Assembly (NCBI GenBank): GCA_965276685.1
Contig: OZ255623.1
Span: 1,935,642 to 1,999,641 of the forward strand
Reading direction: 5' to 3'
Source of the DNA: Acidocella sp.
GTDB taxonomy: Bacteria; Pseudomonadota; Alphaproteobacteria; Acetobacterales; Acetobacteraceae
Length of the DNA: 64,000 nt
Below are positions 7,856 through 23,672 of this stretch, one piece after another (the stretch's first letter is position 1; every line of letters begins with the position of its first letter). The notes under the pieces are model-generated. The model did no database searches and was not told the DNA's origin. It worked only from the letters and a program-made list of their open reading frames with translations. The position numbers were made by a program, and so were the translations under genes.

Positions 7856-8769
7856 ATGCGTTTCCGCAATCTCAATCTTAACACCCTGGTCGCGCTCGAC
7901 GCCCTCCTCACCGAGACAAACGTTACGCGGGCGGCTGACCGCCTCAACATGGCGCAGACGACCATGAGCGGCATACTGACACGGCTGCGGGCTCATTTCG
8001 ACGACGCGCTGTTGGTGCGGTCGGGCCGTCACCTCGTTCCTACTGCCTTTGCCGAACGTATGCGCCATCCGGTCCGCAGCCTAGTCCTGCAACTCGATAC
8101 GCTGGCGCTCGGTCGTCTCGATGTCGAGCCGGCCTTGATGAGAGGAACCTATTCGGTTCTGGCGCTCGATGCCATCCACACCATCTTTCGACCCGCGTTT
8201 GCCGGCGTCTGGCATGTGAGGCACCGAACATCGCCTTGTCGCTCGTTCAGCTCTCCAGCTTCGCCGACAATCGCCGCCTTGCGAGCAACGATATCCAACT
8301 GGTCGTCGGTCCGTCCTTTGCCATCGATCCTAACCAGCCCTCCGTGAGCCGGTTCGAGGAGGACCTGGTATGTATCGCCTCACGCGACAACCGCACGATC
8401 GGTGATACGATCACCCTCACCGATTTTTTGGCAGCGAAGCACGTGCTGCCGCGCACCTTGGCAGTCAGCGGGTTCGAAAGCAGCGAGACGACGATGCTGC
8501 GCCTGATGGGTCATCCACGTCTTACCGGGGTCTCGACGACGAGCTATTTGCTCATGCCGGAACTCGTCGCAAACAGTGATTTTATCGCAACGATGCCGCG
8601 GCGGCTGGCAATGCTGACAAATCCGGCACTGAATTTACGTGTCCTTGAACTGCCCTACGATGTGCCGCCGATTTCGATCCATCTGCAATGGGATCGCGCC
8701 TCGGAAATGGATCCTTCCATTCGCTGGCTGCGCGCGCTCTTCATCGACGTTTCTCGCGAACTTAGGTAA
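7856..8769 (+). pseudogene. LysR-family regulator (NodD/MexT-like), frameshifted near 8200-8230
   Basis: LNLNTLVALDALL..NVTRAA..L...QTTMS HTH in one frame; substrate-binding domain ending LQW...DPSIRWLR in another. Confidence 0.85.
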
Positions 8770-9389
8770 CATCGGCAATCCGGACCGCGATGTCTACAAC
8801 ATCGACCGCCTGGTCTTCCACGAACGACGAACGCCATGGGATAGCCGCGCCCGGCGAAGGGCGCTTCCCGGCATCGGCAGCCGGAAGCGCCGCTTTCAAA
8901 CCAGACGAGAGGCGGACTACGCTTTCGCTGCCCCGCCGCCGGCACCACCGCCATGTTGATGTGGGCACCCAGCTCGAAGCCCCGATGCTGGCGCGGTTTA
9001 TGGACACCGACCGCGGCTTTTGTCGTCGCAGGGGGCAGGGCGGCTAAGCCCCGCCGCCTTCAATGCCCCATGAATCTCTTGAAACGCTCACGGCCTTCCG
9101 TTTCGGTGAAAGCCTGTTGGGCGTTAGGGCACTCGTTGCCCCCTGATCGAGCCGTCCCGGCGGCCTGCGACGATCCGTCGCGCTTCGTCGGGATGTGCCG
9201 CGAAATACTGCGTTCCGCGCGCCTCCGCCGGAGGTGTCGATTTCTTTCACGGTAGAGAACCTACCGGCCCAAGCCTCGCTTCTTCACCGGTGTCTGGAAC
9301 TTAGCGTGACTGTGCAACCCTTTACCTTTTTCTTCGAGTTTTTGCCAGTATTCTGCTTGTATCTCTGATTTGCCTTTCTTTTAAGCCTT

Positions 9390-9765
9390 TTGGGAAGGTG
9401 GTTGCCGGCAGGAGACCGGGGTACGCCGAGGCGTTTGAGCCTGGAACGAAGGGTGGTTCCCTGCCGGTAATCGGGCTGTTTATCCCGAACATTCACGAGG
9501 GTCACTGCAAGAGGAACCCGAATGTGCAAGCGCGGGTTAAGGCCCCTCTCATGGCGGAGGCTGCTATGTCTGTCGGCGTTGATGTTTCCAAAGATCGATT
9601 GGACGTTCATATCCGCCCTAGCGGCGAGGCTTTTGCGGTGGCGCGCAATGGCGATGGGCTTGAGGAGCTTTGTTCAAGGCTGCAGAAATTGTCACCTAAA
9701 TTGGTGGTGCTGGAAACAACGGGTGGGTTTGAGATTACTGTGGCGGCCGCCCTCGTCGCAGCAGC
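9390..9765 (+). mobile_element. IS110-family element remnant: structured 5' non-coding end plus truncated DEDD recombinase
   Basis: ATG 9566 (GGAGG RBS): MSVGVDVSKDRLDV...VVLETTGGFE. Coding similarity stops at about 9765. Confidence 0.8.
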
Positions 9766-9829
9766 CCACGAATTTGGCAATCTTGTTGTAGCATGCGCCA
9801 ACTTGTCGAGATGATCGTGATGGAGCGCA

Positions 9830-10520
9830 ATCGCGAACGCCAGGCGCGGATGGCGACGCTGATGTCATGCGCCTCGGCATTGGTCGGTGCGCTGACCGAT
9901 AGGGTAAACCCAGGACGATCCGGATTTGCCGCCCGGCGTTGCTCCCAAAGCTTAGCGATATAGGCAACGGCTTCACGATAACCGCCCGGTGCGATCCGCA
10001 GTGTGCCGTTCACCTCCTTGCGCCGGAGCACTTCGGCCGTCTGGCCGTTGCGGAACATCAGCGCCTTCTCACGCTCCTCAGCGTCATTCTGACGTACCGA
10101 GCTTGCCAACCTCCGGCATGCTGTTTTTGCCCAGCGCCCAGCGTAGCAATTCGATGACGGACCCGGCTTCAACCGCCTGCATCTGCTTCGGATCACCAAT
10201 CATCACCAGTTGAAAGCCGGTCTTCTTCTGAACCGCCAAAATATCGTTGAGCTGCCGGGTACCCAGCAGGCCGACTTCGTCCACCACGACCACTGAATTG
10301 CGGTCGAGAGCAATTTTGTCCACCTTCACGCTACACAGGAACGAGGCAACAGCTTGCGTATTGAACGCGGAGATGCCCGCTTCGGCGAGATCATCGGACT
10401 GCCGCCAAGCCAGGGCAACGCCGAATACCATGCGGCCGTCATCCTGCCAGGCCTTGACGAGAGGCTTGAGCAGCGTGCTCTTGCCGGAACCGGCGACACC
10501 GATGGCCAGACCGATGCGCT
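9830..10520 (-). pseudogene. MobF/TrwC-type relaxase-helicase internal fragment
   Basis: Walker A GVAGSGKST, VVVVDEVGLLGT, VMIGDPKQMQAVEAG, SAPTNAEA; broken across frames. Confidence 0.8.
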
Positions 10521-10523
10521 ACT

Positions 10524-11885
10524 TCATGGAGCGGAAACCTTCGCTATCGGCAGATTCATCGATTTCTGCCTGTCGGTCTGACGCTGGAGCATTATAACCG
10601 ATCCCGCTCCGATGATCATGCTAATGCCGAGTAAGACATAAACTTCAGAAAGCTGCCAATGATGCAGCAGGGCTAGGCTGGTCAGCAAAGGCACGATTAC
10701 CTGTCCAAGCCTCCCAATGCCGCTTGCCCAGCCGAGCCCAGTTGACCGCATGGAGATGGGATAGGTAACTGCTGCCAGCGCGAGGAGGCCCGCGGCACTC
10801 AATCCACCAACGCATGTGCCGAGAAAAATCACATCGATCAACATGGCGTCCAGCGAACCTGCGAAATAGCCCACGACTGCGGTGGATAGGCCGCCGAGAA
10901 TCATGGCAGGAGCCAATATCGCAACTGCCCCAAATTTTTCCATCAAACGCCCCGCGCTCGCCGCACCGAAAATTGAACCGATGCCGCTAATACCGAGAAC
11001 AATGGAGGCCTTCGGTAAGGAAATCCCGTGTTCGTGCATCAGACTCGGAATCCAAAGCACGCCCGATGCAGTCCCGGAAAGAACAACAAACGGAATCCAA
11101 AGCAGCACGGTTCGTACCGCCTCGCCGTTTATAAAAAGATTTTTGAATGGCGCGCCCCCGGTTTGTTCGTCACTTGTGATAATCTGCTCGTTTGAATTCA
11201 GGCCCGGCACAATACGACCCGCGATGCGATGAATATCTCTCGAATTCCGGTTTTTCACGAGCAAGAAGCGGATGGATTCTGGCAGCCACAAGATGAGTGC
11301 CAGGAAAGCGAGCATTGCAAGGCCGCCGCCCACAACAAAGATCGAATGCCAACCGAAGCGTGAAAGCAGCCAGGCATTCAAAAACGCGCCTAAAATTCCG
11401 CCCGTAGGATAAGCGGCCCAGACAAAGCTCGTAACCATCGCACGGTGCGAGTTTGGTGCATATTCAGAGGCGAGCGCGATAAAGCATGGCACCGCACCGC
11501 CAAGTCCTATGCCTGCAAGAAAGCGAATTGCGATCAGGCTCTCAAATGATGCCACGAAAGCGGTGGCGATCGTAAACGCGGCGAACAGCAGCGTCGCGAT
11601 GACCAGCATGCGCTTACGGCCGAAGCGGTCGCCAAGCGAGCCGAAACTGAGCGCACCCAGCATTGCGCCAAAAATTGCCGCAGAAAAAATCGGCCCGAGA
11701 TGTGCTGGCGATAACTTCAAGGCAAGAATAATCAGCGGAGCTGTAAGGCCAATGGAAGTGGAGTCCAACCCGTCTAAAAACGCAACCGCGCCGCATAGTA
11801 CGATGATGCTGACGAGAAATGCGCTGAAGGGCGCCTCGGTAATTACACGCGTGATGTTTACGGAATCTCTCATTTCTTTTGACAT
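10524..11885 (-). CDS. MFS aromatic acid:H+ symporter (PcaK/BenK/MhpT family)
   Basis: FLDGLD, GSLGDRFGRKR, ALASEYAP, RSTGLGW..GIGRLG; multiple TM segments. Confidence 0.9.
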   Translation of the reverse strand: MSKEMRDSVNITRVITEAPFSAFLVSIIVLCGAVAFLDGLDSTSIGLTAPLIILALKLSPAHLGPIFSAAIFGAMLGALSFGSLGDRFGRKRMLVIATLLFAAFTIATAFVASFESLIAIRFLAGIGLGGAVPCFIALASEYAPNSHRAMVTSFVWAAYPTGGILGAFLNAWLLSRFGWHSIFVVGGGLAMLAFLALILWLPESIRFLLVKNRNSRDIHRIAGRIVPGLNSNEQIITSDEQTGGAPFKNLFINGEAVRTVLLWIPFVVLSGTASGVLWIPSLMHEHGISLPKASIVLGISGIGSIFGAASAGRLMEKFGAVAILAPAMILGGLSTAVVGYFAGSLDAMLIDVIFLGTCVGGLSAAGLLALAAVTYPISMRSTGLGWASGIGRLGQVIVPLLTSLALLHHWQLSEVYVLLGISMIIGAGSVIMLQRQTDRQKSMNLPIAKVSAP

Positions 11886-11986
11886 ATTTTTCCTTAAACA
11901 AAAGCGAAGACGCGACTGTTTACCATCTTGCTGATGTAAATAATTTTGTTTTCGATAAACCGGACGAGTTTCATCGAAAATCTTTA

Positions 11987-12916
11987 TCAGAAATTAGTCT
12001 GATCTGCACCTTTTAAGCGTAGTCTGTTGCGGGCTTCGTCTGGTGTGGCGATGGCGTAGCCCAGCTCGCCCAGAATACGCTTGATCTTGGCGACCTGCTC
12101 GGCATTGGAAGTGGCGAGATGGCCGCGGTCGAGATAGAGGCTGTCTTCCAGCCCGACGCGCACATTGCCGCCAAGCAGCGCATTATGCGTCGCCATCGGC
12201 ATCTGGTGCCGCCCGGCGGCGAGCACGGACCATTCTACATCGGGCCCGAACAGCCGTTGCGCGGTGCGGACCATGTGCAGCAGGTGGTCGATCTCTGCCG
12301 CGATGCCGCCCATGATGCCCATGCAGAACTGGATGAACAGCGGCGGCTCGTAGAGCTTCTGGTCCAGAAACCATGCGAGGTTGTGCAGATGCCCGACATC
12401 GTAGCATTCAAACTCAAAGCGCGAGCCGTGGCCTTCGCCCAGACGCTTCAACACCGATTCGATGTCCGCGAAAGTATTTTTGAAAAAACTGCTGCGCGTG
12501 CCTTCGAGGAACGGCTTCTCCCAGCCGTAGCGCCATTCCTTTATCTTATCCGCGACCGGGAACAGCGCCATGTTGATGGTGCCCATGTTGAGCGAGGTCA
12601 TCTCCGGGCTGGCCCATTCAGCGGCGGCGAGGCGCTCGTCGAGGCTCATGCCAGGACCGCCGCCGGTGGTGATGTTCACCACCGCGCCGGTGGCCTGTTT
12701 GATCCGTGGCAGGAACTGCTTGAATAATTCCGGCGAGAAGGCGGGGCGGCCATCCTGCGGGTCGCGCGCGTGCAGATGCAGGATGGTCGCACCCGCCTCC
12801 GCCGCCGCAATCGATTCGGACGCGATTTCATCCGGCGTGATGGGCAGATGCGGCGACATGCTGGGGACATGCAGCGAGCCGGTGATCGCGCAGCTGATGA
12901 TAACGGATTTTGCCAT
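11987..12916 (-). CDS. Beta-keto acid cleavage enzyme (BKACE / 3-keto-5-aminohexanoate cleavage family, DUF849)
   Basis: IISCAITG, LHLHARD, NITTGG, EFECYDVGH, VRVGLED, SNAEQV. Confidence 0.92.
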   Translation of the reverse strand: MAKSVIISCAITGSLHVPSMSPHLPITPDEIASESIAAAEAGATILHLHARDPQDGRPAFSPELFKQFLPRIKQATGAVVNITTGGGPGMSLDERLAAAEWASPEMTSLNMGTINMALFPVADKIKEWRYGWEKPFLEGTRSSFFKNTFADIESVLKRLGEGHGSRFEFECYDVGHLHNLAWFLDQKLYEPPLFIQFCMGIMGGIAAEIDHLLHMVRTAQRLFGPDVEWSVLAAGRHQMPMATHNALLGGNVRVGLEDSLYLDRGHLATSNAEQVAKIKRILGELGYAIATPDEARNRLRLKGADQTNF

Positions 12917-12931
12917 GTTAATTTCCCTATG

Positions 12932-13912
12932 TCAGTGCTGATGCCCGCAGCAGCTTGCGGCAAATTTGCCGAACAGGCGTGTTGCGTTGCCGGAGCGGAC
13001 CATTTTCTGTTCATCCGGCGTAAAGTCCAGCGCCTGGAAAGCGGTTTCCGCCATTCGCACCACGGCTTCCGGAGCGAACGGAAAATCCGTGCCGTAGAGA
13101 ATTTGCGATGCCGGCGCCAAAGCACGAAGTGCGGCGATTTGCTGCGGCGTGACCGCGAGCGCGGTATCGTAATGCAGCCGGGCGAACGCCGCCATCGTTT
13201 CCTGCATGGGGATAGAGCGCTCCCCTAAGGCGGGCAGGCTGCCGACCATGGCAATGCGCGGGGCGAGCATGGGCAGCGTACCGCCGGCATGGGGCAGGAT
13301 GAAATTTATACCGCGATGGCGCAACAATGCGCCGGAGAACATCAGGCTGGCAGCCGTCCTTGTGGTGTCGAACGGGAACTCGATCATCGGCGCGGGCAGT
13401 TCCAGCCCGAACGCCTCAAAACAGCAGGGCGAGGTGGGGTGGATGAACACCGTGACCTTGCGTTCGTCCAGCATTTCCAGCAGCGGCGCCAGCTTTGCAT
13501 CGCCGAGATAAACGCCTTCCGCATTGGTTGGCAGCGCCACACCATCCAGCGCCAGCTCATCCAGCCCGCGCTCCAGCTCCGCCAGACTGGCGACAATATC
13601 CGGCAGCGGCAGAATGGCATAGGCGCCGAAGCGGGTGGGGTGGCGGCGCTTGACCTCGGCGGCATAATCGTTGACCGACCGGCAAAGGGCTACGGCTTGG
13701 GCAGGCTCCAGAAAGGCCACATGCGGCGAGGAGATAGAGAGCAGCGCGCCGGTGACGCCGATCTCGTCCATGCTGGCCAGCGCGCGCTCGGGCGACCAGT
13801 CCGGGACCGGGATACCGCCATCCAGGGTTTTAAGGCCCGCGGTCTTCAGCGCCTCCAGATAAACGGGCGGCAGAAAATGCGCGTGGACATCGATCGTTTG
13901 CGGTTTTGGCAT
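12932..13912 (-). CDS. Amidohydrolase-2 family hydrolase/decarboxylase
   Basis: IDVHAH, FIHP, EFPFDTTR, LPHAGGTLP, YGTDFPF. Confidence 0.88.
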   Translation of the reverse strand: MPKPQTIDVHAHFLPPVYLEALKTAGLKTLDGGIPVPDWSPERALASMDEIGVTGALLSISSPHVAFLEPAQAVALCRSVNDYAAEVKRRHPTRFGAYAILPLPDIVASLAELERGLDELALDGVALPTNAEGVYLGDAKLAPLLEMLDERKVTVFIHPTSPCCFEAFGLELPAPMIEFPFDTTRTAASLMFSGALLRHRGINFILPHAGGTLPMLAPRIAMVGSLPALGERSIPMQETMAAFARLHYDTALAVTPQQIAALRALAPASQILYGTDFPFAPEAVVRMAETAFQALDFTPDEQKMVRSGNATRLFGKFAASCCGHQH

Positions 13913-13936
13913 GGTGTTTCCCGTTGATATTTGTAA

Positions 13937-15508
13937 TTACGCTGCCGTGTTTGGGGCTGCGCGCGGCCGCCGCAAAATTTCTTCCGCGGTCTGCGCGGCG
14001 ATCAGCAAGGCTTCGGCGGGGGCAGGCGCTGCCAGAGCTTGCGACCAGGCGGCGGCCAGATGCCCGGGCTCGCCGGTGCCGAAGACATAACGGTCTGGCC
14101 GTACCAGAACCGCCGCAACGCCGTGCGCCGCCAGCCAGGCCGTAACCTGCTCCCGGAATAAAGCCAAGCGGGCATCATCCAGGCTTATGGTAAAAACATC
14201 AGGCGCCGCGGCCGCGGGCGAAGCCGCGATAAGCCAGGCGCCATGGCCCAGCGCATCGTCCAGCCGCAGCGTCTCGCCGTCACGCTCCGAGACGGGTTGG
14301 GGAAAGAGTTCGCCTGCACCGGGTGTACCTTCCAGAATGCACGGCCCGCCCAGCGGCGGCGGCACGGCGGGCGGAATGGGGGTGATCCCGGCACGGCGGG
14401 CCGCGAGCATCTGTTCGTCCCGCTGCCGCGCCAGTTCGGGGTCTAATGTGCAGACCACCTTGCCCATGTCGATGGCAAGCTGGATATAGGCGCGGGCATT
14501 CGGCTCACGCTCGATCTGATAGCTGTCCAGCAGTGTATCGGCGGCGCCCCCGCGCAAAATCGCGGCCAGCTTCCAGGCGAGGTTGGCAGCATCCCGGATG
14601 CCCGCGCACATGCCCTGGCCCGCGAAGGGTGGAGTTTGGTGCGCGGCGTCCCCCGCGATGAGCACCGGACCGACCCGCCATTTTTCCGCGACAAGCCCGT
14701 GAAAGCGATAAACCGCCTTGCGTTCGATCGCGACATCCGTCTCCCACTTCGCCAGCAGCCCCGCGATGAAATCATCGTCCAGCACATCCGCAGGCTTCTC
14801 GCCCGGCAGCATCATGAACTCCCAGCGATGCCGGCCAGGCCCCATGGGTACGCAAGTGGTCGGCCGGGCAGGATCGCAGATTTGCAAGTTCACCTCCGGC
14901 AGCTTCGCGCCGGGGCGGGGAATCGCATCGACGACAAGCCAAGGCTCGTCGAACTGCAGATCCTCCAGCCGGCTGCCGACCGCCTCGCGCACCGGGCTCC
15001 ACGCGCCGTCGCAACCGACAACGTAACGTGCGATGATGCTGACCGGACCGTCAGGCCCGGCGGCCTCGACGTTTACGCCGTCCGCCTGGACATGAAGATT
15101 TTCAAAAGCCGCGCCGAGCAGCAGCCGGACATTTGGCAAGGCTTTGAGCTTGGCGCGCAACGCGCCCTCCAGCCCCGGCTGGTTGAACATGAAGCCCGCG
15201 GCCCAGCCGGACGGGGCGAGGGTTTTTGCCATCGCCTCGAAGCTGACCAGTACCTCGCCGCTGGCGCTGCGGAATTCATAGCCGTTGGGGACGCGCGCGT
15301 GTTGCAGAACCTCCTCCGCCACGCCCAGTTCCTGAAAAATCCGCATGATCTCATGGTCGAAATGCGCGGCCCGGGGCAGCGGGAAAATTTCCGTGGATTT
15401 GTCGATCGCGAGCACATCGATGCCAGAGTCGCCGAGCAGCCCGGCGAGCGTGGCGCCCACCGGGCCGAGGCCCACGATCAGAATTTCGCAAGAGAGCGTT
15501 TCAGTCAT
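13937..15508 (-). CDS. FAD-dependent aromatic hydroxylase, MhpA-like
   Basis: IVGLGPVG, PRAAHFDHE, VGCDGA, GDAAHQTPPFAGQGMCAGIRDA, C-terminal VLVRPDRYV. Start set at MTETLS. Confidence 0.9.
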   Translation of the reverse strand: MTETLSCEILIVGLGPVGATLAGLLGDSGIDVLAIDKSTEIFPLPRAAHFDHEIMRIFQELGVAEEVLQHARVPNGYEFRSASGEVLVSFEAMAKTLAPSGWAAGFMFNQPGLEGALRAKLKALPNVRLLLGAAFENLHVQADGVNVEAAGPDGPVSIIARYVVGCDGAWSPVREAVGSRLEDLQFDEPWLVVDAIPRPGAKLPEVNLQICDPARPTTCVPMGPGRHRWEFMMLPGEKPADVLDDDFIAGLLAKWETDVAIERKAVYRFHGLVAEKWRVGPVLIAGDAAHQTPPFAGQGMCAGIRDAANLAWKLAAILRGGAADTLLDSYQIEREPNARAYIQLAIDMGKVVCTLDPELARQRDEQMLAARRAGITPIPPAVPPPLGGPCILEGTPGAGELFPQPVSERDGETLRLDDALGHGAWLIAASPAAAAPDVFTISLDDARLALFREQVTAWLAAHGVAAVLVRPDRYVFGTGEPGHLAAAWSQALAAPAPAEALLIAAQTAEEILRRPRAAPNTAA

Positions 15509-15513
15509 CTTGT

Positions 15514-16428
15514 TCAACCCATATGCGGCGGGGCCGGGCCCCATTGTACGGCCAAAAGGTCGGAAAGCGGCGCGACGCGAGAGCCATCCGCGGCGGTGAA
15601 AAGATCGCCATCGGTCCAGTGCTCGAGCGTGTTATCCCAGGGGTCGCGCCAATAGTCGAAGATCTGGCTGCCGAGAAAATGCCGGCCGACGCCCCATTCC
15701 GGCTTATAGCCCGCCTGGGCGAGCCGGACATGGCCCGCATGCAGATCGTCCACATCCACGACCTCGAACGCCGCATGATGAAAGCCGACTCCGGCGGGGT
15801 TTTGCATGAGAAACAACGTGTGATGATCGGTAGGTATTTCACCACGGTCGCAGCGCAGGAAGGCGCCGATGGAAACCTCCGGCGAGGCGGCGATCTCGTC
15901 CGATGTGATGAAGCCGAAACGCTCCTTGTACCAGCGCTCCGAGCGCCGGAAATCCGATACGCTCAGCACGCAGTGACCAAGCCGTACAACATGCGCCGCA
16001 GCCTGGCCGGTACGCTTGGGCTTACGCAGCCGGGCCTTCTCCCGCGCGCTGTTCCAGCCGTCGCTGTCGGGCAAGGTTTGCGTCTCTACCGGCGTCTGCC
16101 CGGCCAGAACTTCCACGAGATAGCCATCAGGATCGCGCAGCGTGACCGCCATGCCGCCGCCGGGGCGCGTGACAGGCTGCGGTTCCACGCCCTCGGCATG
16201 GCCAAGCGCGATCACGTCCTCAACCGAGGCCGCGCGCAGGCCAAGACTCGCGAAACCCGGCTCGCCCTGCTCCGTAATATGCACATAAGGTGCTGGCCCC
16301 AGACCGCGCGCATAAAGACGATTGTTCTCATGCGTGACGGACAACCCGAAATCTACAAGAAAACGCTGCATCTTAGCCAAATCCGGCGCGCGGAACGCAA
16401 CGTGGGATACATCTTCGATTTTGATCAT
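15514..16428 (-). CDS. VOC-family extradiol dioxygenase, trihydroxytoluene oxygenase (DntD)-like
   Basis: Two VOC domains; RLGH, DHHT, HHAAFEV, WGVGRHFLGSQIFDYWRDP...EH. Confidence 0.8.
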   Translation of the reverse strand: MIKIEDVSHVAFRAPDLAKMQRFLVDFGLSVTHENNRLYARGLGPAPYVHITEQGEPGFASLGLRAASVEDVIALGHAEGVEPQPVTRPGGGMAVTLRDPDGYLVEVLAGQTPVETQTLPDSDGWNSAREKARLRKPKRTGQAAAHVVRLGHCVLSVSDFRRSERWYKERFGFITSDEIAASPEVSIGAFLRCDRGEIPTDHHTLFLMQNPAGVGFHHAAFEVVDVDDLHAGHVRLAQAGYKPEWGVGRHFLGSQIFDYWRDPWDNTLEHWTDGDLFTAADGSRVAPLSDLLAVQWGPAPPHMG

Positions 16429-16494
16429 GCTAACGCTTTCCCAAGAGATGGTTTGGCCCATGCCGCTTGGCAATAAAGCCCGTTCGTTACGTTT

Positions 16495-17691
16495 TTAGCC
16501 AACTACTTCGACGATCAGCTTCGCCACGCCGCGTAACGTGTTATGCGGTGTACGTTGCGATTCGATGATGCGGAACCGCTCAACCTTGCGGATGAGGATT
16601 TCCAGCAGCGTGGTAATCTCAAGTTTTGCAAGATGCATCCCGGCGCAAACATGCGTGCCATAACCAAAGCCAAGATGGTCGCGCGCCTTGCGCTCGATGT
16701 CATAGCGTTCCGGGTTTTCGAAACGGCGTTCGTCCCGGTTAGCGCAGGCATAGAGCATGAGTGCGCGTGAGCCTTCCTTCAGCGTTACGCCGCCAATCTC
16801 GAAATCCGTTGTGACATAGCGGGAGAACGCGCGAATCGGCGACTCCATGCGAATCGTCTCGTCGATCGCGCTTGAAATCAGCGCCGGATTGGCGCGCAGC
16901 TTGTGCCATTGGTCCGGGTTGTTCGCCATCAACTCGATCAATGCGGAGGTCGCGTTGATCGTCGTATCCAACGCGGGGGTAAGATAGTCTATCAGCATCG
17001 CCTTTGCGGAAGCATGGGTAATCTTGCCATCGTCGGCGGCGCGGAACAAAGCCGCACCCCAGCCGTTCTGGTCCAGCTCGCTGCGATCGAGCCGTTCGAT
17101 ATAGCCAAAGGCCTCTACCAAAATCTCAAGGCCCTCGATCGTCCGGGGGCTGCTTATCGGGCCGAAGGCGTTAAAGATGGCCGCCGCCCAGCCGAGCATT
17201 TTCTCCTTACCCTCTTCGCTGAGTCCAACCAACTCGGTCACGACCGTGAGGGGGAGAAAATGCGCGAGGTCCAGCACCGCGTCAAAGCGTTTGCGCGCCA
17301 CCAGTTCGCTAATCCGCTTCTCGGCCAGTTCGGTAAGCCGGACTTTTAACGGCGCCAGCGAACCCGGTAGCAGCGGCTTCGCGAACACCCGGCGCAGCTC
17401 TAAATGTTTTGGATCATCTGTCGTGAGCATGACGCCTTCGGCCCCCTGGTTCGCGGGCTCGTTCATCGTACAGCCCTTGGCGGAGGAGAACACCTCGGCA
17501 TTCAGCAGCCCGTCCCTCACCGTCTCAAACCGCGTCAATGCCCAGGCATTATGCCGGCTCAGCCACACGGCAGGCCCGGCGTCGCGCAGTTTCTGATAGT
17601 ACGGGTAAGGATTGAGGATGACTTCATCTGACCAAAAATCACCGTCGAATGTCGGGATCGAAGCAGCTTTCGGATAGATAGCGTCATTCAT
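16495..17691 (-). CDS. Cytochrome P450, CYP199-like aromatic acid O-demethylase candidate
   Basis: NPYPYY..LRDAGP, FNAFGP, ALDTT, ETIR (ExxR), FGYGTHVCAG heme-Cys. GAGGA RBS before MNDAIYP. Confidence 0.92.
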   Translation of the reverse strand: MNDAIYPKAASIPTFDGDFWSDEVILNPYPYYQKLRDAGPAVWLSRHNAWALTRFETVRDGLLNAEVFSSAKGCTMNEPANQGAEGVMLTTDDPKHLELRRVFAKPLLPGSLAPLKVRLTELAEKRISELVARKRFDAVLDLAHFLPLTVVTELVGLSEEGKEKMLGWAAAIFNAFGPISSPRTIEGLEILVEAFGYIERLDRSELDQNGWGAALFRAADDGKITHASAKAMLIDYLTPALDTTINATSALIELMANNPDQWHKLRANPALISSAIDETIRMESPIRAFSRYVTTDFEIGGVTLKEGSRALMLYACANRDERRFENPERYDIERKARDHLGFGYGTHVCAGMHLAKLEITTLLEILIRKVERFRIIESQRTPHNTLRGVAKLIVEVVG

Positions 17692-17785
17692 CGGGTTTTC
17701 CTCAATTGTCATATATTACAAACGGAGAACTTTGGTCGTAGCGATGACGTAGACATTCTGGATCATATCAAAACTTTTTTGTCTC

Positions 17786-17824
17786 AAAAAAAGAAAAAAC
17801 GCGCCACGATGACTTGTGGCGCGT
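17786..17824 (-). terminator. Rho-independent terminator after the DUF1329 gene
   Basis: ACGCGCCAC/GTGGCGCGT 9-bp stem followed by a T-tract on the minus strand. Confidence 0.7.
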
Positions 17825-17842: not shown

Positions 17843-19234
17843 TTAAAATGCTCCAGATGCGGTTACGAGATGGCCCGCTGTGAAGAAAGATGCCGGCAAT
17901 TCCGGGATCACTTTCCAGTGTGGCTGTATCGCTGCGCTAGCATGATCGGTAATCGAGTAATCGCCCGCATGAAGGTCATAGATCGTAAAATTCTGTGCTA
18001 TGTTGCACGCAGGCACGTCTCCATAAATGCATGGAATCATATGAGCGAATTTCCAGAGCGAGCCGCTGCCGTCGTACACGTCGCTCAAAACAGCGCTGCC
18101 AGTGTCTTCATCGCAATACATAGTCCGTCGCGCATCAACATTGCGGGAACCTGGTTTCAATGTCATTTCAACAATACGACAACGATGCAGCTCCCACCTG
18201 ATAAGGTCCGGATTGATAAAATGTGGTTTGAATTGATCATCCGGCGACGCCTCGCTAAATTTGTTCGAATTATATGGCACGTACATTTCTTTTATGCCGA
18301 TATAATTAAAGTCATATTCATTGAGCTGCCCGTAAAACAGGGCGATCTCGTCCCAGTTCGACGTGCCGCCGGTCAGGGAGTCTGGCGTATCGTATTGTAG
18401 CTCAGGCGCCCGGCGTACCCGGCGTTGCCCAACAAGATATTCCCAAGCCTCGACCGGCTGTTTGCCTTGGTTAAGTGTTTGCAAGCTCATAATGGATCCA
18501 CCGGCCTGGTATGGCGGGGCGGTCGGCACGCCAAATGATTCGAAGGTAATTCCTATAAAGTCCTTCTCGCCGTTTTGGAAGTAGTATGGAGCTTGAAACC
18601 AGGCCTTAGCGCGGGATTCAAGTACGACTTCGCCCTCTGCCGTAATGAAATGATCGTCGGCGACGTAATAGGCGGTTGTCCCCGCCCAGGCGAGTTCGTG
18701 GTTCCAGATCACCTCATGGCCATTTTTCGGGATCGGGAAGGGGATACCACCATAAGCGCCGCTGATCGAATTCCCATCCGCCGAGAGCTGAGCGTTGGTC
18801 GCATTCTTGTAAATATTGTCATAAACCCATTGCGGCGCGATGGCAGTGCGATGCGTCGGAAAGATTTGCATCGTAAAATCCGGACGCTTCTGAAAAAGTG
18901 CTTGCAGCGCCGGAGATAATTTATCCGCATATTGCGCCATATTTTGCGACGTAATTACCATTGTCGGCTTCTCATCCGCGAACGGAATCGGTCGCGTATC
19001 GCCCTGCTGGTAATCGGCTGGCATCGGGTATCCCCCGCCCGTCCAGGCCGGAATGCTGCCATCCACGTTTGCCGCTTTCACCGCACCGAACGGGGTCAAC
19101 TGCCCTTTCAAATCTTCCGGCGTGTAAGCGGGCGGTGTAAAAACAGCCTGTGCGTTAGAGAGCTTTGGCAGAGCGGCGGCGGCAGCCGTGGTTGCCGATG
19201 CCATCAAAACAGAGCGCCGTTTCATTTTTATCAT
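17843..19234 (-). CDS. DUF1329 family periplasmic protein with twin-arginine-like signal
   Basis: KRRSVLM signal; LTPFGAVKAAN.DGSIPAWTGG, AYGGIPFPIP, GQRRVRRAPEL.YD, RWELHR. Confidence 0.88.
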   Translation of the reverse strand: MIKMKRRSVLMASATTAAAAALPKLSNAQAVFTPPAYTPEDLKGQLTPFGAVKAANVDGSIPAWTGGGYPMPADYQQGDTRPIPFADEKPTMVITSQNMAQYADKLSPALQALFQKRPDFTMQIFPTHRTAIAPQWVYDNIYKNATNAQLSADGNSISGAYGGIPFPIPKNGHEVIWNHELAWAGTTAYYVADDHFITAEGEVVLESRAKAWFQAPYYFQNGEKDFIGITFESFGVPTAPPYQAGGSIMSLQTLNQGKQPVEAWEYLVGQRRVRRAPELQYDTPDSLTGGTSNWDEIALFYGQLNEYDFNYIGIKEMYVPYNSNKFSEASPDDQFKPHFINPDLIRWELHRCRIVEMTLKPGSRNVDARRTMYCDEDTGSAVLSDVYDGSGSLWKFAHMIPCIYGDVPACNIAQNFTIYDLHAGDYSITDHASAAIQPHWKVIPELPASFFTAGHLVTASGAF

Positions 19235-19247
19235 TTTTTCGTTTCCC

Positions 19248-20933
19248 TTAAAAAGTACGTTCGACGTTGAATGCGACGAAGTCACGGTCCGCGAATGGGT
19301 CGCGCTGCGGCGGCGCAATATAACGAGTATAGCTGATCCCGCCGGTCCATTTATTCAAATAGATGCCCGAAACGCCGATCGTCAGATCGCCACCACGGTC
19401 GATGCCCGTCCCGTTGAACGCACCCGAATCCGGCGACTTGCCCATGAAATTCCAACCAAGGCCGACATTTGGACTAAGATCCAGACCGGGAATTACTTCA
19501 TAATACGTTGCTGATGCGACACCACGCAGCCCAAATGCCATATGCTGAGCTGCTGCTGTATTGAAATTTTCCTTGTTCTTGATGATCGCAAACAGGTTTT
19601 CGCCAGCAACTTCGCCCAGCACCGCTGACGAATCCCATAGGTCCGGTATTTTTGGTCCAAGATAGATTTCCGAAGCCTGATAATGCGCGACATCGCCAAT
19701 GGCATAAAGCGCATTATGTTCGTTGTTGCCGGCATTTTGGCCAGGTGCCACCTGAACCGTGCTAGTAAGATCCTCATTAGCACGCACGGAAGCTTCGCCC
19801 GCGAAATTGAAGGGCCCGACAGTTGTGCTTGCCGAGGCGCCGTAGATTTGGATGCCATTCGCGTACACCAGTTGATATGTGCCAAGGCTAAGCGCAGTGG
19901 GGGAGCCTGCCGCAGTGCCAGGCACAACCTTGGGGGCACCAGCGCTGAGTTCAACATAAGTTTCCGGCTCGGTATCATTGTATTGCAGGGCGTAAGCTCC
20001 GAAATCCCAGTTCGAACCGGGCGGATCGTAATGCACGGCAGCACCGAATTGGCCCGTATCCGAGCCGCTGATGTCATTCGCACGATATAGATACGCAGCG
20101 GCGCCTGGGCTCGACGGGCTCATATAGGGCACGATCGGCGCCAAATAAATGCGCTGACCCCCTTCGTCCAAAAGATCGGCCGGAGACAAGAAGCTTCCCG
20201 CCGGGATAAAATTGAATTTATCCCATTCAAACTGATAATACGCAGTCATCAATATCGATGGAGTAATCTGCACGGAAACGTCCACCTGCCCTACGGGCAG
20301 AAATATGTCTTTCGCCTGGGTATTTGGTACGCTCGCGCCACGCTCGGCATCGATCGGCGCATTCCCATAGGAAATTCCATTACCCGCAAAAAACAGGCTT
20401 TCTCCAAACAGATTTACAAGTCGGCCAACGCGCACCGAGACGGGAATTCCTGCAATCGTGGACGCGCCGTAGATATAAAGATTACGAAGTTCGATGTTAC
20501 GTCCGGCCTGAGTCTCCGTCGCGGTCGTAAATTTATCCGCCGGCTGTGACGCCGCGTTGTAGGTGGCGCCACTCGTATTTTGTGTCTTTTGGTTATAAAC
20601 TGTATCGTAAAAACTATCGACCGTCGCGTCGAAGCCGTAGCCTTGGTCGCTAATGTCGAACTTGCTGAGCAGATCGACACGGTTGGATACGATACCGGCG
20701 CGTAAATTGTCATCACCGTCATTCGTGTTTTGTGCCGCCCCGGTCTGCCCACCAAGATAAGAGCTGACTGGCGCGGTTCGCTCCAACACCGAATACTGTA
20801 ATGTATTGTCGAAGCGAACGTCCACGCCATTATCAAATTGGTAATCGAACGCATGAGCCGCTTGGCCCGCGCAAAGCAACGCCGCGCAGGCAACACCCGA
20901 CATCAACATAAAACGGCTGGTTCTTAGACTCAT
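19248..20933 (-). CDS. DUF1302 family outer-membrane beta-barrel protein
   Basis: Signal peptide, RFDNTLQY, NTNDGDDN, C-terminal DRDFVAFNVERTF; canonical position upstream of DUF1329. Confidence 0.88.
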   Translation of the reverse strand: MSLRTSRFMLMSGVACAALLCAGQAAHAFDYQFDNGVDVRFDNTLQYSVLERTAPVSSYLGGQTGAAQNTNDGDDNLRAGIVSNRVDLLSKFDISDQGYGFDATVDSFYDTVYNQKTQNTSGATYNAASQPADKFTTATETQAGRNIELRNLYIYGASTIAGIPVSVRVGRLVNLFGESLFFAGNGISYGNAPIDAERGASVPNTQAKDIFLPVGQVDVSVQITPSILMTAYYQFEWDKFNFIPAGSFLSPADLLDEGGQRIYLAPIVPYMSPSSPGAAAYLYRANDISGSDTGQFGAAVHYDPPGSNWDFGAYALQYNDTEPETYVELSAGAPKVVPGTAAGSPTALSLGTYQLVYANGIQIYGASASTTVGPFNFAGEASVRANEDLTSTVQVAPGQNAGNNEHNALYAIGDVAHYQASEIYLGPKIPDLWDSSAVLGEVAGENLFAIIKNKENFNTAAAQHMAFGLRGVASATYYEVIPGLDLSPNVGLGWNFMGKSPDSGAFNGTGIDRGGDLTIGVSGIYLNKWTGGISYTRYIAPPQRDPFADRDFVAFNVERTF

Positions 20934-21131
20934 TTCCACTGTTTCCTCCCTAGTTTTTTAATGCAAATCTCATAACGGCCCTATTTCGGCGTTTCACCCA
21001 AAACCGACCATTTCGATGCAATAATTCTACCTTGAACCACTCCCTGTTGGATCGATTCCAGGAGCATCATCATATTGCTCCTGAAATACGAAATTTTTGC
21101 TCGGCAAAACCTGACCCGACAGTCCGAGATC

Positions 21132-22358
21132 TCAGGATGCCGGTTTACTCGATGCCGGGCTATAGAAGGTTCCCGACGGTACGCGGATCACTTCCCTGCC
21201 CGGCTCGAATCCGAGATTGATGGGATCCTCGCCATTCATGACCTTCTTTATCTCGCGGCGCAGCACGCGGCGCTGTAGGCCAATACCCTTATCGGTCGTT
21301 ACCAGATGCTCCTGCGAATGGCTGGGGAAGCCGTTGGGGCCCTGTGTTGCCTGCGCTTCGTAGTCGTTAGGCGCGTCCTGATGCTCCTCGAAGGTCATTT
21401 CGGTCCAAGGTTTCATCTCGGCGAGCCCGGTGCCTTCAAACGGCCGTTTATAGTCGGGACCTACCCGCGAAAGATTGATGGCGCGCACGTGATTATCATC
21501 GACCGGAACGAAGATGGAGATATGTCCGTTGCTGCCCTCGACCACGCCGGGATTTACCGTAATGTTCGGCGCCACCCAGGTTAAAATACGCAGCATGTCC
21601 CGTCCGTCCGGCAAGGATCTGTGCGCTTTGTAGATAACTCCCACATCGACTTCCTCCCAATCCACCTTCGGCAAAATAGCCGCAGTGGTGGTGAAGTGCG
21701 TCGTCCCAAAATTTGAATGCAGGTAATACGCATGGAACGGGTCCATGTTATTGTCATTTATGTTCAGCCAGGAATAGGGCGCAACATCCGGGCCATTGAG
21801 ATCGGCGTGAGCCGAAAAGCTGTTGTCGAGCACGTTGTAACGCTCGTCCGGGGCGAGTTCTTCCATGTGCTCGAACACTGGGAGCAGCGGCATCTTGTCC
21901 GGCGGTCCCATGTAGGTCCAGACAGCGCCATACCGCTCGCGAACTGGATACCAGGGCTGCCGGGCGGACGCGCGGTTCATTCCGCCTTTTGGCTCGCAGG
22001 GCTGATCAAGGCAGTTACCTTCGACATCGAATTTCCAGCCATGGTAACAGCATCGAATCCCGTCATTCTCTACATGGCCGTAGATCAGAGAGGTGCCGCG
22101 GTGCATGCAATGTGGATATAGGAGACCAGGTCGGCCTTCCTTGTCGCGAAAGAGGATGAGATCTTCGCCCAAAATTCGAATTTGTTGCGGCCGCTCCGTG
22201 ACATTGTGCGAGGCGCGGACCGGTTGCCAGTATCGCCGCATAAACTCTCCGCAAGGCGTGCCAGGCCCGACTTCGATAAGCAAGTTCTCCCAGGTGGACT
22301 GAGGACGACCATAGGCTGTTCCCTCTAGCGGCCGCGCAGCGTAAGTCGTGTCGTTCAT
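21132..22358 (-). CDS. Rieske oxygenase alpha subunit, phthalate 4,5-dioxygenase/LigXa family
   Basis: GPGTPCGEFMRRYWQPV, CMHRG...CCYHGWKFD, DNNMDPFHAYYLH, EHLVTTDKGI. Confidence 0.88.
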   Translation of the reverse strand: MNDTTYAARPLEGTAYGRPQSTWENLLIEVGPGTPCGEFMRRYWQPVRASHNVTERPQQIRILGEDLILFRDKEGRPGLLYPHCMHRGTSLIYGHVENDGIRCCYHGWKFDVEGNCLDQPCEPKGGMNRASARQPWYPVRERYGAVWTYMGPPDKMPLLPVFEHMEELAPDERYNVLDNSFSAHADLNGPDVAPYSWLNINDNNMDPFHAYYLHSNFGTTHFTTTAAILPKVDWEEVDVGVIYKAHRSLPDGRDMLRILTWVAPNITVNPGVVEGSNGHISIFVPVDDNHVRAINLSRVGPDYKRPFEGTGLAEMKPWTEMTFEEHQDAPNDYEAQATQGPNGFPSHSQEHLVTTDKGIGLQRRVLRREIKKVMNGEDPINLGFEPGREVIRVPSGTFYSPASSKPAS

Positions 22359-22409
22359 AATAACTGCCTTTCAAGTATGTATCCACGTTATTAACGTCGT
22401 CGTTTACAA

Positions 22410-22460
22410 GCCGCTAATGCCTTTATTGCTGATCTAATGCAGGAACCTTATAGGTTGGGC
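22410..22460. promoter_or_regulatory. Regulatory cassette, copy 1 (upstream of the 21132-22358 oxygenase)
   Basis: GCCGCTAATGCCTTTATTGCTGATCTAATGCAGGAACCTTATAGGTTGG, near-identical to 23618-23669. Confidence 0.75.
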
Positions 22461-22488
22461 TGCAGCGCTTGCGTTAAGCTGGAATGAG

Positions 22489-23526
22489 CTATTCGACGGA
22501 ATCAGCCGTGGCGTCTTTCGTAATTAGCTTAGTGAGCACGCGCCTGGCGAGGACGCCGGCCGTGTCGCTTTGAAGGAGAATAGGTTTCAAACTCCAGAAA
22601 TCCGTATCTCCCATCATCGCCTGCTGGGCCTCGATCATTGGCTTGTCTTCGTTTCCGAACGCCCTCTCAACAACGCTCAGCAGCCGCTTGTCGAGCGCGG
22701 GTTCGTCAATCCTGAATGACCGAGTGCCTGCCCAGAAGTAGTGCGTTGACCGGTCGGTTTCGGGTGTCATGAAGTGAAGCGTGCGAATTTCGCGTGCTTT
22801 TTCGCGGGGCGTTCCCACTGGGGTCAACCCGAAGATATGGATCATCAGCCCTGGAGGATCCCAAATTACGTCGCTCCAGCCGTCGACAGGTTCGTTAATT
22901 TCGAAAAGCTCGCTAAACATTGGGCTGGGACGCTCCTGGCGCCACGAACGCTCATAGTAAACGCGCGTATCCTCCTGGCGAGCGCGCGGTTTGATTGCGG
23001 CGCTTGCCTCGTCGGCAGCGAACGTCGCGCGATGGACAAAAGCGACATGGGAAAGATCGAGAATATTGTCCGACATCAGCTCATAATTGGCTTGCACATG
23101 CACGTATGAAGCCATGTGGGCATATCCTGATTCCGGCCGGAGGAAGAACAGGTCGGGCAGCGTCGAGGCGTCGGCTAAGGCTGGATCACCCATCCAGACC
23201 CAAAGGCCGCCGTAAATCTCGATCAGTGGATATTTTTTCAGCCTGGCAGCGGGCGGAGTCGCACCGTCTGCCTGCGGATTAAACACGCATTTCCCTTGCC
23301 CGTCGAATTGGAGCCCGTGGTAGGGGCATTGAATATTATCTTCCCGCACCTCGCCCAAATGCAGTGGCGCAAACCGGTGAGGACAGCGATCGGATAACGC
23401 GACGGCGGTTCCATCGCTTGTCCTATATATCAGGACCTGCTCGTTCAGGATGATGCGCGCGAATGGGGTGGCCTTGATCTCGTCTGACCAAGCCGCCAGG
23501 TACCAGCAGTTTTTAAGGAAGGCCAT
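22489..23526 (-). CDS. Rieske O-/N-demethylase-type oxygenase (VanA/DdmC/TsaM-like)
   Basis: MAFLKNCWY, CPHRFAPL, CPYHGLQFD, DNILDLSHVAFVH, HFMTPET..STHYF, EDKPMIEAQQ. Confidence 0.9.
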   Translation of the reverse strand: MAFLKNCWYLAAWSDEIKATPFARIILNEQVLIYRTSDGTAVALSDRCPHRFAPLHLGEVREDNIQCPYHGLQFDGQGKCVFNPQADGATPPAARLKKYPLIEIYGGLWVWMGDPALADASTLPDLFFLRPESGYAHMASYVHVQANYELMSDNILDLSHVAFVHRATFAADEASAAIKPRARQEDTRVYYERSWRQERPSPMFSELFEINEPVDGWSDVIWDPPGLMIHIFGLTPVGTPREKAREIRTLHFMTPETDRSTHYFWAGTRSFRIDEPALDKRLLSVVERAFGNEDKPMIEAQQAMMGDTDFWSLKPILLQSDTAGVLARRVLTKLITKDATADSVE

Positions 23527-23617
23527 AAGTAACTCCGTCATGTGCCAAGTCAATTCTTGAGCGATTCGTCCCGGTTCTCGCTGTGTCCAAGTCACGCGTT
23601 AACGCCGCAGTCCTCAG

Positions 23618-23669
23618 GCCGCTAATGCCCTTATTGCCGATCTAATGCAGAAAGCTTATAAGCTTGGAC
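23618..23669. promoter_or_regulatory. Regulatory cassette, copy 2 (between VanA-like gene and divergent LysR)
   Basis: Two CTAATGC direct repeats 20 bp apart plus perfect palindrome AAGCTTATAAGCTT (23652-23665). Confidence 0.75.
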
Positions 23670-23672
23670 GTT

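Follow-up and report, generated by a model that had tools for sequence, protein, structure and literature searches.

The textbook lower pathways of aromatic degradation use a hydratase and an aldolase, a beta-ketoadipate CoA-transferase and a thiolase, or FAH or maleylpyruvate hydrolases. The lower 2,4-dinitrotoluene pathway, with DntB, DntD, DntG and DntE, was reportedly described by Johnson, Jain and Spain in 2002. In Burkholderia sp. DNT and B. cepacia R34 its enzymes are a FAD monooxygenase (DntB), a trihydroxytoluene oxygenase (DntD), an FAH-family isomerase/hydrolase (DntG) and a CoA-acylating semialdehyde dehydrogenase (DntE). The orcinol and resorcinol pathways of Pseudomonas putida ORC are said to have been described by Chapman and Ribbons in 1976, and gamma-resorcylate pathways include the gra pathway of Rhizobium and the tsd pathway of Rhodococcus. 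The MhqA/MhqB route for methylhydroquinone runs via trihydroxytoluene to 2,4,6-trioxoheptanoate (PMC8571283). Genes for BKACEs, enzymes that cleave beta-keto acids, lie inside the pca (beta-ketoadipate) clusters of Methylobacterium, where they are predicted to end an aromatic pathway (PMC8963497). 'Aromatic' contexts of some BKACEs have been remarked on and not elucidated (PMC11961710; NetSyn preprint), and for BKACE15 of Paracoccus denitrificans (PDB 8RIO, 8RIP and 9HNF) the physiological role is stated to be unknown (PMC11961710). Here we describe a six-gene cluster with a BKACE gene at positions 10524-17691 of a 64,000-nucleotide stretch of Acidocella sp. DNA (the window; positions 1935642-1999641 of contig OZ255623.1, the single contig of a 3.2-Mb genome with 59.9% G+C). 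Positions are those of the window unless a contig or another locus is named.

We found that three genes of this cluster, for a VOC ring-cleavage dioxygenase, a FAD-dependent aromatic hydroxylase and a BKACE, recur together in other loci, typically with genes for a TetR repressor and an FAH hydrolase. The window appears to hold a rearranged copy of this module and not its archetype. Its ORF listing has six full-length open reading frames (ORFs) here, all on the minus strand and running from 17691 to 10524, for a cytochrome P450, the VOC dioxygenase, the FAD hydroxylase, an amidohydrolase, the BKACE and an MFS transporter. The intergenic gaps are +66 nt (P450-VOC), -31 nt (VOC-FAD, an overlap), +24 nt (FAD-amidohydrolase), +15 nt (amidohydrolase-BKACE) and +101 nt (BKACE-MFS). 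A strong intrinsic terminator (17799..17824, minus strand), a 9-11 bp G+C-rich hairpin ACGCGCCAC...GTGGCGCGT followed by the T-run TTTTTTCTTTTTTT, separates the P450 gene from an upstream DUF1302/DUF1329 pair, whose unit ends there. Because of this terminator and the tight spacing, the six genes plausibly form a transcription unit of their own, with the boundaries proposed in an earlier note on this DNA. That note had described an intact, co-oriented and tightly packed operon. All six ORFs were indeed found in place and complete on the minus strand, but 'intact' holds for the ORFs only, as the operon also contains remnants of a TetR gene and an FAH gene. The note had also remarked that the usual meta-pathway genes are missing. 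This was borne out: family profile searches of the window found no hydratase/aldolase, CoA-transferase or thiolase gene inside or adjoining the cluster.

The window proteins were searched by tblastn against 80 BKACE loci from species genomes; ORF clustering of the BKACE loci used a filter on third-codon-position G+C (GC3) against antisense shadow ORFs in high-G+C loci. The six genes occurred together in none of these 80 loci and in none of the other loci examined. Two of the 80 shared the FAD hydroxylase, and one of these also had the VOC gene. The other BKACE loci analysed for context contained mainly SDR, cyclase-family and 3HCDH-like genes and were thus phloroglucinol-type clusters, with the arrangement of SDR, cyclase and dehydrogenase genes that belongs to the phloroglucinol reductase pathway, which Zhou et al. 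2023 characterised (PMC10470551). Genes for a VOC dioxygenase, a FAD hydroxylase and a BKACE were present together in most of ~10 other loci examined. On a metagenome contig (L106) they are part of a co-directional series, VOC>FAD>TetR>BKACE>FAH. TetR-VOC-FAD is divergent from BKACE-FAH in metagenomes (L098/L099), in the 4.6-Mb genome GCA_965283965.1 (L101, with a P450 gene added to the first group), in Sphingomonas sp. RB3P16 (L019) and in Novosphingobium naphthalenivorans (L109), where genes for 3-oxoacid CoA-transferase A/B and a thiolase follow. Partial variants were found in a metagenome and metagenome-assembled genomes (L107, L018 and L020).

The full five-gene module was thus seen in L106, L098, L101, L109 and L019. 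The window has only three of the five genes whole (VOC, FAD hydroxylase and BKACE); TetR is represented by a 59-nt tail and FAH by an 81-nt stub. The association of the three core genes appears to be more than chance, and the P450, amidohydrolase and MFS genes look like additions to this core. The earlier prediction of six-gene synteny therefore survives in part: the VOC/FAD/BKACE core is co-conserved, but the full set was seen nowhere else, with related P450 genes in two other loci, amidohydrolase genes in four and the MFS gene beside the module in none of those examined. The module is sporadic. The VOC gene was found in 7 of 301 genomes of the order (this genome included) and in 0 of 15 genomes of the same genus.

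The BKACE (11987..12916, minus strand) has 309 aa. It scored 339.6 bits against PF05853 (DUF849; cut-off 24.8) and covered positions 2-274 of the 274 in the profile. Its LHLHARD and VGLEDS sequences align with the Zn-binding HxH and Glu/Asp motifs of PDB 3E02, 3E49 and 8RIO. We found that it also exceeds the cut-off of the NCBIfam equivalog NF053538 (3,5-dioxohexanoate:acetyl-CoA transferase/triacetate acetoacetate-lyase), with 481 bits against 430; a second copy in the genome, described below, scored 479.5 bits. These scores place the window BKACE, as a sequence-based assignment, in the triacetate-lyase/3,5-dioxohexanoate family. It aligns over its full length with 3E02 (415 bits) and with BKACE15 (8RIO, 341 bits).

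Within this family the window BKACE falls in a separate 'aromatic-context' clade (SH-aLRT 97), sister to a 72-row clade of lyases from phloroglucinol (PGR/cyclase) clusters. It shares neither the clade nor the context of those lyases, there being no SDR, cyclase or 3HCDH gene beside it. Residues S19, P22, P88, F169 and H214 agree with BKACE15 (8RIO) and not with the cluster lyases. The substrates tested with BKACE15 were beta-ketopentanoate, beta-ketohexanoate, 3,5-dioxohexanoate and malonate semialdehyde (PMC11961710). This neutral-substrate range, together with the shared residues, fits a beta-keto acid R-CO-CH2-COO- with a small neutral R, and the enzyme's place in the neutral beta-keto/3,5-dioxo-acid clade agrees with its earlier description as a cleaver of beta-keto acids. 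Relatives with E<=1e-100 were present in 78 of 401 genomes (an even sample of Alphaproteobacteria, this genome included). Relatives at 60-67% identity were common, and none above 67% was found in the 400-genome class sample.

The genome contains four full-length BKACE paralogues, a further paralogue that is more distant, and fragments. One paralogue belongs to a reductive phloroglucinol cluster at contig 2455316-2459272 (L104), whose genes are 80% (cyclase-family, DPGC-like), 76% (SDR) and 59% (3HCDH-like dehydrogenase) identical to those of other BKACE loci. Two short BKACE-like fragments lie in the window at 2955-3148 on the minus strand (PF05853 positions 237-274 and 41-71). They look like the remnant of a BKACE pseudogene, near a GST/LigW-like cluster.

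The VOC protein (15514..16428, minus strand) has 304 aa from its ATG; a TTG start at 16473 is probably spurious. PF00903 (71 bits) covers residues 164-284. The protein has the features of a type I extradiol dioxygenase: two VOC modules, a 2-His-1-carboxylate metal triad (H152, H218 and E269) and C-terminal catalytic His and Tyr residues. The triad is invariant in 10 homologues, as are H203, H250 and Y259. Identity is 78% to the homologue in L125, 73% to that in L106 and 48-55% to those in other module loci, and VOC homologues at other loci are likewise paired with FAH proteins. The characterised families that it resembles are remote (HpaD model, 74 bits; BphC, 28 bits). A PcpA/LinE-type hydroquinone dioxygenase was considered and rejected, there being no PDB match to PcpA at E<1e-5.

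The hydroxylase (13937..15544, minus strand; 535 aa) is a group-A FAD-dependent aromatic hydroxylase (PF01494, 211 bits). It passes the broad NCBIfam subfamily NF004829 (536 bits, cut-off 390). The earlier label 'MhpA-like' holds as a distant family resemblance but no further, as the protein falls below every MhpA equivalog cut-off: 356 bits against 546 for NF004831, 259 against 853 for NF004828 and 228 against 966 for NF004827.

Two scars mark the module genes that the operon lacks. The first is a remnant of the 3' end of a TetR gene (13961..14019, minus strand), its last ~20 codons, fused in frame to the hydroxylase gene. Its 59 nt are 95% identical to the end of the TetR gene of a second locus (L016 11567-11625). 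The last ~25 residues of the hydroxylase (EALLIAAQTAEEILRRPR...) match the TetR C-terminus of that locus, and the translations align. The rest of the operon's repressor gene is deleted. The second scar, directly 3' of the BKACE stop, is a decayed 5' stub of an FAH gene (11894..11974, minus strand; 26 codons, 36% G+C), which reads MKLVRFIENKIIYISKMVNSRVFAFV and then a stop. The intact FAH of the genome starts MKLVRFTENN, and a 32-nt stretch of the stub matches it at 91%. Relatives have FAH directly after BKACE, and the window keeps its stub in that place; the missing hydrolase gene therefore appears to be a secondary loss and not the original state. The intact FAH gene lies in trans at contig 2737782-2738633, ~790 kb from the window, and is 72-78% identical to the FAHs of the module loci. 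This 2.738-Mb region was considered as a third aromatic locus and rejected, as the genes around the FAH gene (DUF2125, SDR, Usp, ADH and LDH-like) have no relation to such a pathway.

The second locus, VOC-FAD-TetR-BKACE, is at contig 3042480-3046626 (L016 8430-12629). Over 2363 bp it is 99.6% identical to window 16429-14067, and the identical stretch begins exactly at the VOC start codon. The two BKACE genes are 96% identical in nucleotides and 99% in amino acids. A DUF1302/DUF1329 pair beside the second locus is 74% identical (nucleotide) to the window pair and reversed in orientation. These unequal identities (99.6% in the core, 96% in BKACE and 74% in the flank) suggest recent gene conversion between older paralogous loci. 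A further arrangement was found in L125 (4907-9942, ENA contig_22596), which has VOC-FAD-TetR-Amidohydro_2-alpha/beta-hydrolase without BKACE or FAH. Its VOC protein is the closest relative of the window VOC (78%), and its hydroxylase and amidohydrolase are 74% and 74-75% identical to those of the window. The L125 type may process the same ring-fission product through a different lower branch. The TetR tail, the FAH stub, the second locus and the L125 gene order together indicate that the window operon is probably a hybrid of two module types that lost its repressor and its cis hydrolase and gained the P450 and MFS genes.

Such scars might also be read as signs of an evolutionary leftover. A rearrangement beside mobile debris would have joined intact genes without making a working pathway, or the BKACE would be a spare triacetate lyase for the phloroglucinol-reductase pathway. 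The reduction of the repressor (TetR) and the hydrolase (FAH) to remnants fits this reading, as do a relaxase-like AAA_30 fragment, an IS110 fragment and a split LysR gene just downstream. The VOC gene is also rare in the order and absent from the same-genus genomes counted above, and G+C swings between 54 and 66% across the operon. However, all six ORFs are full length with their catalytic motifs intact, the genes overlap or are tightly spaced, and the VOC-FAD segment is 99.6% identical between two loci. Further, BKACE recurs with VOC, FAD hydroxylase and TetR in most of the independent loci examined, and the genome keeps an FAH of that type in trans. We consider either form of this reading unlikely.

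We propose, with middling confidence, that the operon degrades a resorcinol-type phenol by hydroxylation to a hydroxyquinol, extradiol cleavage, hydrolysis by an acylpyruvase-type FAH encoded in trans, and cleavage by BKACE. The scheme starts from what was observed, namely what the genes encode, the conserved order of the module, both scars, the near-identical second locus and the trans FAH gene; the reactions are what such genes would be expected to do. The MFS transporter would take up an aromatic acid. The P450 and an ACMSD-type decarboxylase would trim a substituted hydroxybenzoate to a resorcinol-type phenol, which the FAD hydroxylase would convert to a hydroxyquinol-type triol. The VOC enzyme would cleave the triol next to the diol to give a 2,4-dihydroxy-6-oxo-dienoate, that is, a 2,4,6-trioxo acid. 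The extradiol product of a hydroxyquinol is an alpha-keto (2,4,6-trioxo) acid, which BKACEs do not use, so that a C-C hydrolase has to act before the BKACE. An acylpyruvase-type FAH would split the trioxo acid into pyruvate and a beta-keto acid, R-CO-CH2-COO-. BKACE and acetyl-CoA would then convert this to R-CO-CoA and acetoacetate without ATP, and the genome's CoA-transferase and thiolase, genes for which are present, would take acetoacetate onward. R would be a small neutral group (H, alkyl or oxo-alkyl). Among NCBIfam models, the module FAHs match 2,4-didehydro-3-deoxy-L-rhamnonate hydrolase best, with scores of 208-233 bits that fall short of its cut-off, and their likeness to acylpyruvate-type C-C hydrolases is a resemblance and not an orthologue call. 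The scheme keeps the general logic of the earlier note, with a phenol hydroxylase, an extradiol-type VOC enzyme and BKACE as the terminal C-C cleaving step. Resorcinol- or orcinol-type substrates are still the most economical guess. Homogentisate-type cleavage, 3,5-dihydroxybenzoate (giving oxaloacetate) and phloroglucinol/tetrahydroxybenzene (giving malonate) were demoted because each would leave BKACE without a role.

The earlier note had assigned a different part to the amidohydrolase. In that route hydroxylation and cleavage would leave the carboxyl group in place. The amidohydrolase would then act on the ring-fission product in the manner of ACMSD, by hydrolysis or decarboxylation, to yield a poly-beta-keto acid (e.g., triacetate), which BKACE would cleave directly; FAH takes no part. 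The amidohydrolase (12932..13912, minus strand; 326 aa) is an Amidohydro_2 enzyme of the ACMSD/LigW/gamma-resorcylate-decarboxylase type (PF04909, 119.6 bits, positions 1-288 of 289). Its HxH...H...D metal motif is present (VHAH, IHPT, PHAGG and GTDFPF), as expected of an ACMSD-type enzyme. Its PDB relatives are 2F6K, IDCase, LigW, ACMSD and gamma-resorcylate decarboxylase, and the nearest solved ones are non-oxidative decarboxylases. Some homologues at 59-73% identity are labelled '6-methylsalicylate decarboxylase' by JGI. Close homologues (74-78% identity) occur in four other loci, beside VOC/FAH or VOC-FAD-TetR sets.

Several observations fit that route. The amidohydrolase gene lies between the hydroxylase and BKACE genes, ACMSD is among the relatives of its product, and the BKACE matches the 3,5-dioxohexanoate equivalog. 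In L125 the amidohydrolase homologue sits in a 'lower pathway' position after VOC-FAD-TetR, adjoining the alpha/beta-hydrolase gene, and in L123 and L124 the homologue pairs with VOC and FAH, the adjoining VOC-FAH unit having no hydroxylase. Chemical reasoning argues against it: extradiol cleavage gives a 2-hydroxy/2-oxo acid and not a 3-oxo acid, so decarboxylation alone makes no BKACE substrate. Moreover, the second locus has VOC-FAD-TetR-BKACE without an amidohydrolase, the canonical module has FAH and not Amidohydro_2 after BKACE, and the stub indicates that FAH was formerly present in the window too. We therefore think the route through an amidohydrolase-made poly-beta-keto acid improbable. 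Hydrolysis or decarboxylation of the ring-fission product to such an acid found no support, as the enzyme is of the ACMSD/6-methylsalicylate-decarboxylase type and the alpha-keto product needs a C-C hydrolase. A decarboxylase that funnels substrates into the pathway seems the more likely role.

A still less probable alternative is an O2-dependent phloroglucinol route. Here 2,4,6-trihydroxybenzoate would be decarboxylated to phloroglucinol, the hydroxylase would form 1,2,3,5-tetrahydroxybenzene, the VOC enzyme would give 2,4-dioxoadipate (a 3,5-dioxo acid), and the triacetate-lyase-derived BKACE or FAH would split it. The sister position of the BKACE to bona fide phloroglucinol-pathway lyases is consistent with this, and 2,4-dioxoadipate is, by reasoning, triacetate with a carboxylate for the methyl group. 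A fungal central pathway via tetrahydroxybenzene also uses a monooxygenase and an FAH-like enzyme (PMC10832562). However, BKACE would have to form an unusual CoA ester of the oxaloacetyl type, and FAH alone would already give pyruvate and malonate and leave BKACE without a role. The genome already has a reductive phloroglucinol cluster. A weak argument is that the BKACE pocket is like that of neutral-substrate enzymes, with no obvious basic residue for a distal carboxylate.

Several points weigh against the hydroxyquinol-FAH-BKACE scheme that we prefer. The VOC protein is without a close characterised relative (best PDB matches, 47 and 28 bits). Its preference for a hydroxyquinol-type substrate is suggested only by the recurrent pairing with FAH hydrolases, and we infer its regiochemistry from the same association. 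Neither BKACE locus of the genome has an FAH gene in cis, and the trans FAH, among SDR, Usp, ADH and LDH-like genes, may serve another pathway. BKACE seems superfluous for orcinol, which would give acetoacetate directly, and resorcinol would give malonate semialdehyde and hence an odd product, formyl-CoA. BKACE and FAH are 70-86% conserved between loci as against 48-74% for the VOC protein and the FAD hydroxylase; one constant BKACE substrate fits this better than a variable R. In L125, the amidohydrolase occupies the place that BKACE has in other loci and so could act after ring cleavage, as ACMSD does.

The first gene of the operon encodes a cytochrome P450 of 398 aa (16495..17691, minus strand; PF00067, 84 bits), distantly related to CYP199. 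Its ATG at 17691 has a GAGGAA ribosome-binding site, and an alternative ATG lies upstream at 17712. The best PDB matches are CYP199 enzymes (245-260 bits), with 35% identity to CYP199A4 (4DNZ) and 38% to 9G9Q. By the P450 nomenclature rule, membership in a family needs >=40% identity, a level that the operon P450 does not reach for CYP199. In CYP199A4, R92, S95, R243 and S244 bind the benzoate carboxylate. The operon P450 has G, G, I and D at these four positions and so lacks the CYP199 residues, and it has a 3-residue deletion ahead of the first pair. It keeps the heme Cys motif FGYGTHVCAG. Related P450s (40-47% identity) in the module loci L101 and L018 have the same substitutions, as does a paralogue in the same genome. 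The operon P450 represents a distinct P450 lineage. The label 'CYP199-like' is thus right as a distant family resemblance but not at 35-38% identity with the carboxylate-binding residues replaced. For the same two reasons, the earlier suggestion that this P450 O-demethylates methoxybenzoates is unsupported.

The P450 paralogue is at contig 2027668-2028867 (L017 7682-8887) and is 89% identical in protein to the operon P450. It was uninformative as a functional clue: it stands alone among thyX, ispDF, recO and parC, and neither catabolic neighbours nor an obvious redox partner were seen at its locus. The last gene of the operon encodes an MFS transporter (10524..11885, minus strand; 453 aa, 54% G+C; PF07690, 155 bits). 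It had been called an aromatic-acid transporter, which is apt at the level of family resemblance, but it falls below all of the curated cut-offs: 302.8 bits against 418.55 for the aromatic acid/H+ symporter model TIGR00895, 257 against 770 for PcaK and 231 against 410 for MhpT.

The neighbouring DUF1302 + DUF1329 outer-membrane pair (17843..20939, minus strand; PF06980, 368 bits; PF07044, 375 bits) is possibly an uptake system. The genome has at least six such pairs (e.g., at 1929-1931, 2401-2403, 2817-2831, 3017-3021, 3039-3042 and 3188-3192 kb), 60-81% identical in protein, and two inspected pairs flank the two VOC-FAD loci. They may be a paralogous family of uptake systems. Just upstream of this unit (21132-24605) are two tandem Rieske oxygenase genes under a divergent LysR gene; one product is of the VanA type with a VanA_C domain, and the module has VanA-like genes at its flank in L101 and L020 too. 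Directly downstream of the MFS gene, 7856-10431 contains mobile-element and decay debris. A LysR gene there is split (7856-8769), its helix-turn-helix and its substrate domain lying in separate ORFs. The stretch 9398-9814 weakly matches the N-terminal part of an IS110-type transposase, and 10084-10431 is a fragment of an AAA_30 relaxase/helicase gene. CocE/NonD-type esterases (Peptidase_S15 + PepX_C) are encoded inside or beside BKACE/hydroxylase loci elsewhere (L018 2452-4260; L107 3367-5256), a hint that ester-linked phenolics, for example depsides, are the starting compounds for some versions of the module.

A full-text literature search found no published description of a VOC/FAD/TetR/BKACE/FAH module, and bacterial catabolic genes for alkylresorcinols or orsellinate-type acids were not described in the literature searched. 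The module looks like a variant of the hydroxyquinol-type meta-cleavage pathways not previously described in that literature. As a tentative generalisation, the module would be an aerobic lower pathway in which an acylpyruvase cut is followed by a BKACE, recruited from phloroglucinol triacetate lyases, that captures the unstable beta-keto acid without ATP. If this is true, resorcinolic compounds, for example alkylresorcinols and the orsellinate-type acids of lichens or fungi, would have a route dedicated to them. To the textbook endings the module would add an ATP-free capture of an unstable beta-keto acid as a CoA thioester, and it would provide a physiological role for the BKACE clade to which BKACE15 is the nearest characterised relative. 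It could also help to find the bacterial genes that act on resorcinolic lipids and on lichen or fungal acids of the orsellinate type, compounds that abound in soil and cereals. The locus is a snapshot of operon evolution as well, with paralogous loci 99.6% identical over 2.4 kb, a repressor cut to an in-frame tail and a transporter gene replacing a hydrolase gene. These features bear on knockout design. A single BKACE knockout, which had been offered as a refuting test, would be a poor one because of the second copy, 99% identical, in the genome.

Of the described BKACE systems, the reductive phloroglucinol pathway PGR-DPGC-TfD-TAL (PMC10470551) shares with the module a terminal enzyme of BKACE subfamily NF053538 and its chemistry, in which a 3,5-dioxo or 3-oxo acid is cleaved with acetyl-CoA to give acetoacetate and an acyl-CoA. 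That pathway differs in opening the ring reductively and hydrolytically with an SDR and a cyclase-family hydrolase, without oxygenases, and the window BKACE is in a sister clade. The BKACEs of Methylobacterium pca clusters and the Cupriavidus 3-oxoadipate BKACE (NF053568) share with the module a predicted, not demonstrated, replacement of CoA-transferase and thiolase by BKACE. They differ in having a dicarboxylate substrate and an intradiol route, and the window BKACE scored 165 bits against the NF053568 cut-off of 350. BKACE15 aligns over its full length (341 bits) and shares several clade-discriminating residues with the window BKACE. Its locus has a 3-hydroxyacyl-CoA-dehydrogenase-like neighbour, whereas no VOC, FAD hydroxylase or FAH gene is nearby, so its in vitro data transfer by sequence similarity only.

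Among the pathways for dihydroxylated rings, the gamma-resorcylate pathways likewise use an Amidohydro_2 decarboxylase, a resorcinol hydroxylase and an aromatic-acid transporter to funnel a dihydroxybenzoate to hydroxyquinol. They continue with an intradiol hydroxyquinol 1,2-dioxygenase and a maleylacetate reductase in place of VOC, FAH and BKACE. The orcinol/resorcinol and MhqA/MhqB routes match the proposed order of a resorcinol-type phenol, a FAD hydroxylase, a trihydroxytoluene or hydroxyquinol intermediate, a dioxygenase, a 2,4,6-trioxo acid and C-C hydrolysis. Their hydrolases end in acetate, acetylpyruvate and pyruvate, and there is no BKACE; the L125-type variant looks closer to these routes than the module with BKACE. 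What the lower 2,4-dinitrotoluene pathway has in common with the proposed scheme is a flavin monooxygenase, extradiol VOC-type cleavage of a triol and FAH-family hydrolysis to pyruvate and a 3-oxo acid. The window differs in keeping FAH only as a stub, and the proposed BKACE step, which would yield an acyl-CoA and acetoacetate, would replace the NAD/CoA-dependent dehydrogenase; the two are likened by the logic of the pathway.

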